Positions 8,180 to 17,351 of a stretch of DNA of 64,000 bases are shown here, in pieces; position 1 is the first letter of the stretch; each line of letters starts with the position of its first letter. Both the position numbers and the translations under genes were made by a program. This DNA comes from Armatimonadota bacterium (GTDB taxonomy: Bacteria; Armatimonadota; SYMT01), in contig JAWLHY010000001.1 of assembly GCA_041690135.1 (NCBI GenBank), positions 416,001 to 480,000 of the forward strand, in the 5' to 3' direction. Below the pieces are notes generated by a model. That model was not told the origin of the DNA and made no database searches. It saw nothing but the letters and a program-made list of their open reading frames with translations.

Positions 8180-8698
8180 ATGAGACCAGATTGTGTACTC
8201 ACCCCTTCAGCAGTGGAGAGGAAGATCCGGGAGGCATTCGCCGACCTGGAGATCCCGGAAGAACCACTGGTCATCCGAGCCTACCAGCAAAGCGACGAAG
8301 GGGATGCTGTGCGGAGATGCTGCCTGGGCAGAAGCTGGCAGGCAATCACCAGATCGGACATTCAGGCACTCGAAAAGGGTTGGGTCCTTACTGTCATGAC
8401 GCCGGTCGCCTGGAGATACTACCTGCCGGCCTGGATGACTGCATCCATAGACGCCTATGCGGCGGATTTCATCCCAGATTATGTAGTCAGGAGTCTCGCT
8501 GAACCTGGCGAAAGGAGAAAGGGCAGCATTAGGGTCAACACGGAAAAGCAAGCCCTGATCACTGACAGGCAGGCCGAAAGCATATTGACCTTCTTGCGGT
8601 GGATCGAGTTGCACTATGGCGAAGACGCCGACGAGTCCCTGGATTGCGCCTTGAAGTACTGGGGGTTCCGATGCAACCAACACGCGGAGCCTGGATAG
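8180..8698 (+). CDS. Hypothetical protein (DUF6714-like)
   Basis: IREAF.D...P, MTPVAWRYYLPAWM, terminal ALKYW pattern resembles DUF6714 proteins; visibly less GC-rich than neighbours. Confidence 0.6.
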   Translation: MRPDCVLTPSAVERKIREAFADLEIPEEPLVIRAYQQSDEGDAVRRCCLGRSWQAITRSDIQALEKGWVLTVMTPVAWRYYLPAWMTASIDAYAADFIPDYVVRSLAEPGERRKGSIRVNTEKQALITDRQAESILTFLRWIELHYGEDADESLDCALKYWGFRCNQHAEPG

Positions 8699-8908
8699 AT
8701 GGGTTCGTTCGGAAGCCCGATCCCGCTACGACACGTCTCGTAACCTCGCCCCGAATGATGGAGCAGGGCCCCCGGAGGCTCGGCAGGGATGACCAGTGAG
8801 GAACGTTCGAGACTGCTCCGGGGGGCTCGAGAGAGGCGCGACTGCAAATTGGGAGTTAACCGCGGAGGCTGTTGTTCCCGAGTTAGATCCCAACACGAAA
8901 GGACTGGC

Positions 8909-9688
8909 ATGCTGCCCATGAGCGAGGGAACCGTGTGGAAACGTGGGGTGGTCAGGGCCGGATGGCTCGGGCTGGGTGCCGCGCTCATCTTGTGGGTCCT
9001 CGCTCCGCGGCAACCTTCCCGGGCAGAGATGGAACGGGAACGGGTCGCCACGCCGGAGGGAATGGTCTACGTCCCCGGCGGAACGTGTCTCATCGGCTCG
9101 CCCGACCCGGATGATAGCGATGCGCCCGCCATGCGGAAGGTGTTCGTCCCTTCCTTTTACCTGGACCGCCTGGAAGTGACGAACGCCGAGTTTCGACGGT
9201 TCCGATCGTCCCACGCCTACCCGGAGGGGGAGGACCGGCTCCCCGTCACCAACGTGCAGTACGAGGAGGCGGAAGCGTACGCCCGCTGGGCCGGGAAGCG
9301 GTTGCCGACGAACGAGGAATGGGAGAAGGCGGCGCGGGGAATCGACGGCCGGAGGTATCCCTGGGGCAACGGGTGGGACCCGAAACGGGTGGCGCCGCGC
9401 GCCCGCCGTAAGCCGGTGCCTGTGCCCGATGGCGGTCACTGTCCGCCATCCCGCGTACAGCCGGTGGGGACCGTTCCGGCCGGCCTCAGCCCGTTCGGGT
9501 GCCTGGATATGGCCGGAAATGCCTGGGAGTGGGTCTCCGGGTTCCATGGGGGTAACCGGGAGCAACGGATCATCCGGGGTGGTGCCGTCGGCTACGGAGA
9601 GCGCGCTTGCCGCACCTACTCCCGCGGGATCGAGGGCGCGGGCGTTACGTGAAGGGACGTCGGATTTCGCTGCGCGAAGTCACCGTAA
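8909..9688 (+). CDS. SUMF1/FGE-sulfatase-domain protein, probable selenoprotein (UGA 9650-9652 read through)
   Basis: N-terminal TM/signal segment; EVTNAEF, RLPTNEEWEKAARG, YPWG, DMAGNAWEWV, RGG; the family-terminal GFRC motif lies after the UGA (T-U-RDVGFRCAKSP-TAA); SECIS-like hairpin at 9663-9681. Confidence 0.75.
9663..9681 (+). promoter_or_regulatory. Putative bacterial SECIS hairpin
   Basis: GATTTCGC-TGC-GCGAAGTC: 8-bp stem (one G-U) starting after a 10-nt spacer from the UGA; G at second loop position. Confidence 0.55.
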
Positions 9689-9696
9689 TCAGCACA

Positions 9697-11583
9697 CTAG
9701 GCAGGGGCGAGTAGGCCTCGCTCCATCACCACGTCCTTGGCCAGGGTATGGTAGCCGGACGCCTCGAAAAGCACGGTCACGCCCTCGTCGGTGACGCGGG
9801 TGACTTCTCCGGATCCGTACTCGGAATGGGTGACGTGATCGCCGACCCGCACCGCGTCGAGCCAGGTCCGGGGCTCGGGCGGCTCCGGCGAAGGGTCCTC
9901 CGCGGAGGGCGGCGCGGTGACTTCCAGTAGGCCTTCGCGTTCCACGACCTCGCGGGACAGCACCTTTCGTTCTCCGGTATCAAAGTCCACCGTGAGGGTG
10001 TCGCCTTCCGTACTGGAGACTCGACCTTCGCCCCATTCCCGGTGACGCACCTGGGCGCCGGGTTGGAACGCATCCGGTTCAGTCACTTCCGGAGCGAGGT
10101 CGGTGCGGAGGTCGTTGTCGCACCAGTCGCAGTTCTCGAACTCGGTCTCCTCCCCGAAGTAGTTGAGCAGGTAGCGGCGACGGCACTCCCAGAGCTCAGC
10201 GTAGCCGCGGACCATCTCCAGGCGGCTGCGCTCGTAGCGCTTGCGCCGTTCTTCGCATTCCAGCGAGATTCGCTCGGGATCGAAGTCCTCCACGCGGAGG
10301 CGCACCGAGTCTCCGGTCGTGTCGAGCATGCCTGCCGCGGTTAGCAACTCGATGGCGCGCGCCGCCTTCGCCTTGCCCAACCCGGTGGCGGCCCGGAGGT
10401 CGGCCGGAGTGATCGGGGCGCCGGACCGTAGCGCCTTGCGGATCTTGCGCAGGTCCTCGACGGCGACCCGGCTGCTGCCGCCCAGAAAGGCCGCCCGCCC
10501 CAGGTCGGCGGGACGGTAGATCAGCACGCACCGGGCCGGCTCCCCGTCGCGACCGGCTCGCCCGGCCTCCTGGTAGTACTCTTCCACGCTGGCCGGCACG
10601 TCCCGGTGGATCACGAAGCGCACGTCCGGCTTGTCGATGCCGAGACCGAACGCATTGGTGGCGGCGATCACCCGCAGTTCGCCCGCCATGAAGGCTTCCT
10701 GAATGCGGTCGCGGTCCGCCTTCTTCAACTGGCCATGGTAGCAGCCGGCCTCCACGCCCCACTCCCGCAGCCAGGCGGCAGTCTCTTCGGCTGCTCGGGT
10801 GGTGGCCGTGTAGATGATGCCGCTACCCTGCATCATTCCGGCGAGCCGCTCCGCGAGATCCGGAGGGTACCGCTCGTCTTCGCCCTGGAAGAGGGTTCGC
10901 AGCACGGAGAAGTCTTCCTCCTCCTGCCGGACCGTGCGGACCTCGAAGAACAGGTTCGGCCGGTCCACCCCGGAAACGATGACCCGCGGCCCCCGCAGGT
11001 CGAGCCGCTCCACGATATCCTGCCGGACCCACGGGGTGGCCGTCGCCGTCAGGGCCAGCACCGGGGGCCGGCCCAGCCGTTCCACCGAGTGAGGGAGCGC
11101 CAGGTACGCCGGTCGGAAATCATAACCCCATTCGGAGATGCAATGCGCCTCGTCCACGGCCACCAGCGAGATTTCACCCGCGGTAAACTGCGCGACGAAC
11201 TCCGGGTTCTCCAGGCGCTCGGGGGTGACGTAGAGGATCCGCGTTTCCCCCTCCCGGGCGCTCGCCAGGCTCTCCTCAATCTGTCGCGCCGATTGGCCGC
11301 TGTGGATGACGCCCGCCTCAACCCCCTGCGCCTCCAGGGAGTCCGCCTGGTCCTTCATCAGGGCGATGAGCGGAGAGACGACCAGGGTGATCCCCGGAAG
11401 AAACTGTGAGGCTACCTGGTAGACCAGAGACTTGCCTGCCCCCGTCGGCTGGATGTAGAGGACGTCCCGCCCCCCGAGGAGAGTGCGGATGGCCCGCTCC
11501 TGGCCGGGGCGGAAACGGTCGTGGCCGAAATCGTTGCGCAAACAGGCGAAGAGTTCCTCGCCCCCCGGTTGCCGGTTCCCCAT
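9697..11583 (-). CDS. recQ: RecQ-family ATP-dependent DNA helicase with two C-terminal Tudor/SH3-like repeats
   Basis: PTGAGKS, VDEAHCISEWGYDFRP, ALTATA, ATNAFGLGIDKPDVRFV, YYQEAGRAGRDG, CRR...CDWCDN zinc site. Confidence 0.92.
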   Translation of the reverse strand: MGNRQPGGEELFACLRNDFGHDRFRPGQERAIRTLLGGRDVLYIQPTGAGKSLVYQVASQFLPGITLVVSPLIALMKDQADSLEAQGVEAGVIHSGQSARQIEESLASAREGETRILYVTPERLENPEFVAQFTAGEISLVAVDEAHCISEWGYDFRPAYLALPHSVERLGRPPVLALTATATPWVRQDIVERLDLRGPRVIVSGVDRPNLFFEVRTVRQEEEDFSVLRTLFQGEDERYPPDLAERLAGMMQGSGIIYTATTRAAEETAAWLREWGVEAGCYHGQLKKADRDRIQEAFMAGELRVIAATNAFGLGIDKPDVRFVIHRDVPASVEEYYQEAGRAGRDGEPARCVLIYRPADLGRAAFLGGSSRVAVEDLRKIRKALRSGAPITPADLRAATGLGKAKAARAIELLTAAGMLDTTGDSVRLRVEDFDPERISLECEERRKRYERSRLEMVRGYAELWECRRRYLLNYFGEETEFENCDWCDNDLRTDLAPEVTEPDAFQPGAQVRHREWGEGRVSSTEGDTLTVDFDTGERKVLSREVVEREGLLEVTAPPSAEDPSPEPPEPRTWLDAVRVGDHVTHSEYGSGEVTRVTDEGVTVLFEASGYHTLAKDVVMERGLLAPA

Positions 11584-16805: not shown

Positions 16806-17351
16806 CTATTTCTTCGGGATGCCGAGGGCTTCCAGCTTGGCCGCCAGGTCTTTGCCATGGTTGGCCGGCTTGACCGCCTTATCGATGTCGCGGATGATGC
16901 CTTTTTCGTCGATGATGAAAGTCCACCGGTTGGCGAAGCCGCGCTCGGGATTGAGCACGCCCAGCGCCTTAGCGAAGGACTTTTCCGGATCGCTGAGGAG
17001 CGGGAAGTTGTATTTTCCCTTCTCCGCGAACTGCTTGTTGAGGTCGACCGGGTCGGTGCTGGCACCGAAGTACTGGGCTTTGAACTTGGTAAGTGCGCTC
17101 ATCTCATCACGGAGTGAGTTACATTCGGCCGTTCACCCACCGGTCAGGGCTTTGGGGTACCACGCGATCACGACCGCTGACTTGCCCAGGAACTGCCCGA
17201 GGGTATAGACCTTTCCGTCCGTTCCCTCGAGTTTGAAGTCGGGAGCCTTGTCGCCCACCTTGGGCGCCGGGGCTTCCTGTCCCTGGACCGGCGTCGGACC
17301 GCCAAAGGCCATGAGCGCGACCAACGCGCCGAGGCCGAGCAGCCACTTCAT
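16806..17351 (-). CDS. Exported peroxiredoxin (AhpC/TSA, Bcp-like) selenoprotein, UxxC
   Basis: Track ORFs 17133..17351 and 16806..17102 are one frame joined across a TGA (17133-17135): WYPKALTGG-U-TAECNSLRD. The TGA sits at the peroxidatic Cys position (PxxxTxxC). Signal peptide, KVGDKAPDF, RWTFIID..GII. Confidence 0.88.

Follow-up and report, generated by a model that had tools for sequence, protein, structure and literature searches.

The window analysed here is a 64,000-nucleotide (nt) stretch of an Armatimonadota genome (9.1 Mb in 25 contigs). At 8909-9688 on its forward strand lies a gene for a protein of the FGE-sulfatase family (PF03781) whose reading frame meets an in-frame TGA at 9650-9652 and then goes on. 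A first-pass annotation of the window, made from the letters alone, had proposed that this protein with a SUMF1/FGE domain is a selenoprotein made by UGA read-through. A column of TGA or Cys shared among orthologues, a hairpin downstream of the codon and the selenocysteine (Sec) machinery of the genome all support that proposal. On the strength of these comparisons of sequence, we consider it very probable that the UGA at 9650-9652 is decoded as Sec. The features of the locus are listed below, each with its basis.

8897-8903, forward strand: Shine-Dalgarno-like GAAAGGA, 5 nt before the ATG at 8909 (direct sequence reading)
8909-9688, forward strand: coding sequence of the putative selenoprotein, 259 amino acids (aa) plus TAA (TGA-read-through translation, PF03781, AlphaFold2, Foldseek)
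8954-9007, forward strand: N-terminal hydrophobic segment, approximately residues 16-33, a predicted signal anchor or signal peptide (hydrophobicity, model)
9440-9442, forward strand: codon of Cys178, a residue of a variable insertion loop and candidate Sec partner (38-sequence alignment)
9650-9652, forward strand: in-frame UGA, putative selenocysteine U248 (orthologue column comparison)
9663-9681, forward strand: predicted bacterial selenocysteine insertion sequence (SECIS) hairpin, codons G252 to S258 (RNAalifold, pair counts)
9686-9688, forward strand: true stop codon TAA (sequence and read-through translation)

Past the TGA, the frame opened at 8909 runs through eleven sense codons, AGG GAC GTC GGA TTT CGC TGC GCG AAG TCA CCG (RDVGFRCAKSP), and ends at the TAA, just as the first-pass annotation had read it. 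U is residue 248 of the 259-aa read-through product. An alternative, longer open reading frame (ORF) from an ATG at 8789 would add 40 residues to which nothing in the orthologue alignment corresponds.

A TGA or Cys column shared among orthologues

Orthologues were sought by six-frame whole-genome searches with the read-through protein as query. In a first search of 41 relatives, the best matches of seven other genomes contained exactly one in-frame TGA and those of two contained none. A search of 401 genomes sampled evenly from the phylum, at a cut-off of E ≤ 1e-45, found an orthologue in 33 genomes, with one in-frame TGA in 25 and none in eight. These eight are referred to as Cys-form genomes, the Cys having been read directly in five of them. 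In all, 32 loci were extracted, 27 with the TGA and five without (the no-TGA genomes G175, G157 and G045 were left out).

All 27 TGA-bearing loci place the codon in one and the same column, within the context E-G-x-x-x-T-U-x-D-[TV]-G-F-R, at 40-67% protein identity, and in all five extracted loci that lack TGA the codon there is TGC or TGT. These homologues thus carry Cys or TGA at the column and never the Trp or Arg that the first-pass annotation had held would speak against Sec. Conservation past the TGA, which it had also anticipated, is clear from an alignment of 38 sequences, where T247, U/C248, D250, G252, F253 and R254 are invariant. A tree of the same 38 sequences needs about four switches between Sec and Cys, at least two of which are forced by well-supported branches; no direction of change is claimed. 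The Sec form, with its TGA, also occurs in one metagenome-assembled genome (MAG) of the Vulcanimicrobiota (locus L075), the one Sec form among the 80 loci of the matches listed in a wider contig search, which are mostly paralogues at 29-44% identity. A further locus from that search, L150, has an unrelated Cys at the -4 position.

Could the TGA be a nonsense mutation, a pseudogene lesion or a sequencing or assembly error in the window genome? One stop codon in frame, close to where a gene ends, is indeed how a point error would look, and public calls treat the codon as a stop, the predicted protein of the window (P0002) being 247 aa long. Against such an accident stands the presence of the same codon in the same column of 27 orthologue loci and in another phylum. 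Moreover, of the 120 closest proteins in a collection of 5.8 billion, 112 end exactly on the residue just before the Sec codon, and the other eight are full length with Cys. In the orthologues, the frame and residues downstream of the codon are conserved. We regard an error or lesion as practically untenable. Comparative evidence shows the UGA to behave as a conserved sense codon, exchangeable with Cys, in Sec-competent genomes.

The downstream hairpin and the selenocysteine machinery

A spacer of 10 nt (9653-9662) separates the UGA from a hairpin with the 5' arm GATTTCGC at 9663-9670, the loop TGC at 9671-9673 and the 3' arm GCGAAGTC at 9674-9681. It comprises eight pairs, one of them U-G, places its apical loop 18 nt from the UGA, carries a G at the second position of the loop (UGC) and has an energy of -8.1 kcal/mol when folded alone. 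The bacterial SECIS (bSECIS) model, as stated in the legend to Fig. 2 of the review PMC13188914, sets the distance from UGA to loop at 16-37 nt and the loop at 3-9 nt with a G in its first two positions; it also calls for a stem of 4-16 base pairs (bp) and a minimum free energy (MFE) of at most -7.5 kcal/mol. The window element lies within all of these published values (18 nt, 3 nt, UGC, 8 bp, -8.1 kcal/mol). The bacterial SECIS layout that had been read into an 8-bp hairpin after a 10-nt spacer is therefore borne out.

The same helix emerged from the orthologues. Given 26 Sec-form stretches (the TGA plus 45 nt), RNAalifold predicted it de novo. Of its 208 cells 97.6% are paired, a value reached by none of 500 column shuffles, and sliding the 3' partner by one to three columns lowers the paired share to 31-64%. 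One pair (15-31) co-varies, being A-U in 15 of the Sec-form stretches, U-A in six, G-U in two and C-G in one; in coding terms, the third base of a Gly codon co-varies with a Ser/Thr codon. The Vulcanimicrobiota locus provides a further C-G state at this pair, and four other pairs vary on one side through G-U.

Of the 27 Sec forms, 23 had energies at or below -7.5 kcal/mol in this fixed register and 26 had energies at or below -4.5 kcal/mol, three of these lying between -4.5 and -6.2 kcal/mol. At L053 the fixed register gives +2.6 kcal/mol, and a shifted, longer stem is found instead (MFE -17.9 kcal/mol). The five Cys forms gave -2.0, +1.1, -4.4, +1.0 and +4.2 kcal/mol. The 3' arm is the informative part of the element, complementary in Sec forms and drifting in four of the five extracted Cys forms. 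In 26 of 27 Sec forms, one of the first two loop positions is a G.

The Sec is so close to the C-terminus (11 residues) that the SECIS takes up the final seven sense codons of the gene. The codons for A-K-S in the tail mirror those for G-F-R as their reverse complement (GGA UUU CGC versus GCG AAG UCA, 9662-9682), so the SECIS dictates protein sequence here. Sec forms almost always end in A-[KR]-[STP], while the tails of the extracted Cys forms read A-Q-S, A-A-D, V-R-D and A-M-R; the fifth, L071, keeps A-K-A.

All of the machinery on which the first-pass annotation had made its proposal depend is encoded in the window genome. A tRNA-Sec scores 67.2 bits and is called SeC (tca) by ARAGORN, and selA (566.6 bits), selB (383.6 bits) and selD (369.6 bits) all score over curated cut-offs. 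Three of these genes, selA, selD and the tRNA-Sec gene, stand in a row at G000:C1:1149453-1152359 (loci L017, L020 and L001). The selD gene contains one in-frame TGA of its own, so SelD of this genome appears to be a selenoprotein as well.

Presence of selA follows the form of the orthologue. Against a background of 215 of the 401 genomes in the phylum sample, selA was found in 24 of the 25 TGA-form genomes. The exception, G373, is an incomplete assembly (86%, 560 contigs) in which selA has no match but selB is present. Both additional TGA-form genomes from the search of 41 relatives (G016 and G004) have selA, and the Vulcanimicrobiota genome with the Sec form has selA and selB. Among the Cys-form genomes, a selA match is absent in seven of eight, one of which (G080) also lacks selB, and an intact selA is present in none. 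In the eighth, G040, selA is interrupted by an in-frame TAG (G040:C1:1103614-1104993 and locus L025), while selB is intact. The Sec system of G040 may be in decay, with a sequencing error as the alternative for its TAG.

Read-through without Sec, whether by near-cognate insertion of Trp or Cys or by a lineage-wide reassignment of TGA, would yield the full-length fold just as well. However, in many orthologues the gene itself ends with TGA, as do many ORFs of the window, so the codon is not generally reassigned. A suitably spaced SECIS-type hairpin, the complete machinery and homologues with Cys, not Trp, together form the signature of Sec, and genomes without selA have replaced the codon. We judge read-through of this kind very improbable.

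Several observations weigh against decoding as Sec through this hairpin. Folded as a single sequence, 61 nt of the window reach -16.6 kcal/mol versus -15.4 ± 2.8 kcal/mol for shuffles (z = -0.44), a stability equalled or exceeded by 56 of 200 shuffles. Changes on both sides are seen in only one of the eight pairs, and since the 5' arm encodes the invariant G-F-R, conservation of the hairpin is partly driven by the protein. One Sec form, L063 (1486-1533, reverse strand), has a loop ACC without G, on a stem extended to 10 bp. Finally, the genomes compared are kin and not independent, so that fewer events lie behind the co-occurrence than the counts suggest.

Fold, conserved residues and the proposed site

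The Pfam model PF03781 (FGE-sulfatase) matches residues 50-257 of the read-through protein over positions 3-255 of its 255-position profile (E 1.1e-44, 153.5 bits, cut-off 23.3). The match runs through and past the TGA, and a stop there would leave the domain without its end, in line with the truncation of the fold that the first-pass annotation had foreseen. An AlphaFold2 model built on the 38-row alignment (mean predicted local distance difference test score, pLDDT, 90.6; predicted template-modelling score, pTM, 0.86) combines a helix at the N-terminus (residues 7-31) with the FGE fold, in which the residues after the TGA form a strand (251-253) within a block of pLDDT 97. The top solved matches in Foldseek were CalU17 (6vqp), bacterial and human FGE (6s07 among them) and pFGE (1y4j), all with a probability of 1.00, and a sequence profile agrees.

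These models also bear on the reading of the TGA as a real stop, in which the protein would end at T247 and the conservation downstream would stem from an RNA element, for instance a terminator or a regulator. The hairpin could be a transcript-end structure, and a convergent RecQ-like gene ends 8 nt past the TAA. On the other hand, D250, G252, F253 and R254 are invariant also in Cys forms without the hairpin, the Pfam and AlphaFold models need the strand after the TGA to complete the fold, and the switch between TGA and Cys follows the presence of selA. There is no T-run after the hairpin, and scans of the window reported neither a terminator-like site near the 3' end of the gene nor a promoter-like site. 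A real stop at this position is, in our assessment, scarcely credible.

The RecQ-like helicase gene (9697-11583, reverse strand) encodes C-terminal DUF3553 and tudor-like domains, and the upstream neighbour is a gene for a DUF6714 protein (8180-8698, forward strand). Neither is kept beside the orthologues. Across the 32 orthologue loci, with approximately 1.5 kb inspected per side, no conserved neighbour gene was found, sharing being confined to close relatives (at most four loci).

The N-terminus carries a 15-residue hydrophobicity maximum of 2.0, and comparable segments are present in orthologues. Six orthologues (L024, L028, L064 and L066-L068) have an L[AVS]GC lipobox instead of the anchor. 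Since the N-termini are hydrophobic anchors or lipoboxes, the protein is probably extracytoplasmic.

Four conserved features are specific to the family: the T-U/C-x-D motif four residues before GFR, E242, the G228-Y229 pair and Cys178. A Cys four residues before GFR was seen in only 7 of 382 GFR motifs among 149 representatives of the FGE-sulfatase superfamily, a set dominated by long multi-repeat FGE proteins and used as a background frequency only. Cys178 stands at its column in 35 of the 38 sequences and one residue earlier in two (conserved in at least 90% of sequences), and it is present in the Vulcanimicrobiota protein. The cysteines first put forward as partners of the Sec, C234 in ACR and C255 in GFRC, vary within the family, and both were rejected as family-wide partners; it is Cys178 that is nearly invariant instead.

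In the window protein, Cys178 with the following P-P-S-R (9440-9454, residues 178-182) matches CxPxR, the motif that FGE recognises in sulfatases. Most orthologues have the spacing C-x-x-G-P-S-R, some without S-R, and the exact match is not conserved. It may be a coincidence or a hint of a substrate-like loop.

Is the protein a true FGE for the sulfatases of the genome, with Sec in place of the catalytic cysteines? The fold is the same, FGE is among the closest solved structures, and 71 matches to sulfatase domains occur in the genome at E ≤ 1e-20. An extracytoplasmic protein would also sit where unfolded sulfatases exported by the Sec pathway emerge. In FGE, the two catalytic copper-binding cysteines lie in a CxxxxC loop after RGGS. 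This CxxxxC is absent from the window protein, where the segment reads RGGAVGYGERAC, and the Sec lies elsewhere, as the first-pass annotation had noted. Without this copper site, the selenoprotein is not a canonical formylglycine-generating enzyme. Nor is it needed as one, given two canonical FGE paralogues elsewhere in the genome. These keep LCxxxYC after [RK]GGS and span 29 residues from RGG to GFR, versus 26 in the selenoprotein, and they lie near sulfatase genes, whereas the selenoprotein gene has no sulfatase neighbour. The role of a true FGE is accordingly improbable. The canonical genes are at G000:C3:579837-582295 (loci L047/L052) and C5:420191-423209 (loci L048/L051), each within approximately 1.3 kb of a sulfatase gene; the idea that the window protein is the only FGE of the genome was rejected on finding these two beside sulfatases.

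The explanation that we favour combines Sec decoding, a SECIS and a tethered, non-canonical FGE-fold protein with a relocated active site including Cys178, and as a whole we hold it to be likely. SelB with Sec-tRNA(Sec) would read the UGA at 9650-9652 as Sec, directed by a minimal SECIS (8 bp, 3-nt loop, G at position 2) 10 nt downstream, and decoding would let translation add D-V-G-F-R, the final beta-strand of the FGE-sulfatase fold. An N-terminal anchor, or a lipoprotein signal in some orthologues, would tether the protein outside the cytoplasm. There, U248 would act as the catalytic chalcogen of an active site distinct from the copper site of FGE. Its partner would probably be Cys178, the two forming either a redox couple of the selenenylsulfide type or a soft-metal (copper-type) site with two ligands. 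In lineages that lost the Sec machinery, Cys would have replaced U and the hairpin would have decayed.

The chemistry proposed at U248, a redox or metal site, is tentative. Three points speak against the functional part of the explanation: one Sec form, L030, has no Cys178; model confidence is at its lowest in the Cys178 loop (pLDDT of approximately 60 for residues 171-180); and, with no conserved neighbour, the genomic context offers no hint of function. In its most specific form, U248 and Cys178 would constitute a relocated Se/S site (a selenenylsulfide or a copper-type metal centre) of an oxidase with the FGE fold that is tethered to the membrane outside the cytoplasm, a reading that we consider unlikely as it stands. 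Such an oxidase might act on exported proteins or small molecules, for example in the post-translocational oxidation of cysteines in unfolded exported substrates, by analogy with FGE of the eukaryotic endoplasmic reticulum. If true, it would be the first selenium-dependent enzyme with the FGE fold, and the fold would have a second, independent active-site solution.

Public annotation and comparison with known systems

The window holds a second Sec candidate, which had been noted 7.5 kb away and proved to be real. It is a gene for an exported AhpC/TSA peroxiredoxin (16806-17351, reverse strand; PF00578, E 6.4e-32) with a TGA at 17133-17135 that would place U at the peroxidatic position in a T-G-G-U motif. 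By the family names in the catalogue of PMC13188914 it fits 'Prx, TxxU'. The TGA is kept in six of the seven best matches among relatives at E ≤ 1e-50; G006 and two weaker matches in G019 have none. Its downstream fold alone, from the single sequence, is not significant.

Nearly all public gene calls for the FGE-fold family appear to be wrong, lacking the last strand of the fold, and read-through would correct this systematic annotation error. Among the 120 closest proteins, 17 come from NCBI records; 16 of these stop short at the Sec codon, and two of the 16 are named 'SUMF1/EgtB/PvdO family nonheme iron enzyme'. The invariant Sec/Cys would mark an active site within this large 'SUMF1/EgtB/PvdO family' group and offers a pair of residues, U248 and C178, to mutate.

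New bacterial selenoprotein families are still regularly found. A 2026 review (PMC13188914) catalogues 119 prokaryotic selenoprotein families and subfamilies in its Table 1, and that table has no entry for PF03781 or FGE. In their main texts, supplements aside, this review, BSepDB (PMC13326102), deep-Sep (PMC12013277) and a 2022 review (PMC9312934) make no mention of an FGE-fold or Armatimonad selenoprotein. None of the papers that full-text searches turned up describes an FGE-fold selenoprotein, as judged by titles and abstract openings. As far as these sources go, the family is apparently undescribed, with an ordinary decoding mechanism and an unusual fold and site. The FGE-sulfatase fold (PF03781) would thus join the list of selenoprotein families, with a spread of 27 Armatimonadota genomes and one Vulcanimicrobiota MAG in the searched sample. 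The family would also provide a natural example of a SECIS hairpin dictating a C-terminal peptide and of replacement of Sec by Cys that tracks the loss of selA.

With FGE/SUMF1 the protein shares its fold (Foldseek 6s07_A, E 6e-16, query TM-score (TMq) 0.64; profile against FGE chains in the PDB, E ~1e-31), the W-E-W and RGG motifs and the terminal GFR strand. It differs in having no copper cysteines and in having T-U/C-x-D, the insertion loop of Cys178 and an N-terminal membrane or lipoprotein anchor. SUMF2/pFGE (1y4j; profile E 2e-36) and CalU17 (6vqp and 7ml6; 6vqp_A, Foldseek E 4.4e-18, TMq 0.69) match it best in sequence and structure and resemble it in keeping the fold without an aligned catalytic Cys pair. 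In HMMER alignments, however, the Sec column is Ser in 1y4j and Asn in CalU17, and neither is a selenoprotein.

The sulfoxide and selenoxide synthases EgtB, OvoA, SenA and OvsA likewise have an FGE-like domain, and some handle selenium substrates. None of the NCBIfam models reaches its cut-off on the read-through protein; EgtB scores 73 bits versus a cut-off of 360 and SenA 65.3 bits versus 420. Unlike EgtB, OvoA and SenA, the protein lacks the N-terminal DinB-type iron domain, having only PF03781 in its 259 aa, and its selenium would lie in the polypeptide, not in a substrate.

From the catalogued selenoproteins it is set apart by a fold that the 119-family Table 1 of PMC13188914 does not contain. 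In its mode of decoding it is predicted to be like other bacterial selenoproteins with a bSECIS inside the ORF. They share the in-frame UGA, Cys homologues, a stem-loop 16-37 nt downstream with a G in the first two loop positions, dependence on selA, selB, selD and tRNA-Sec, and routine truncation by gene callers.

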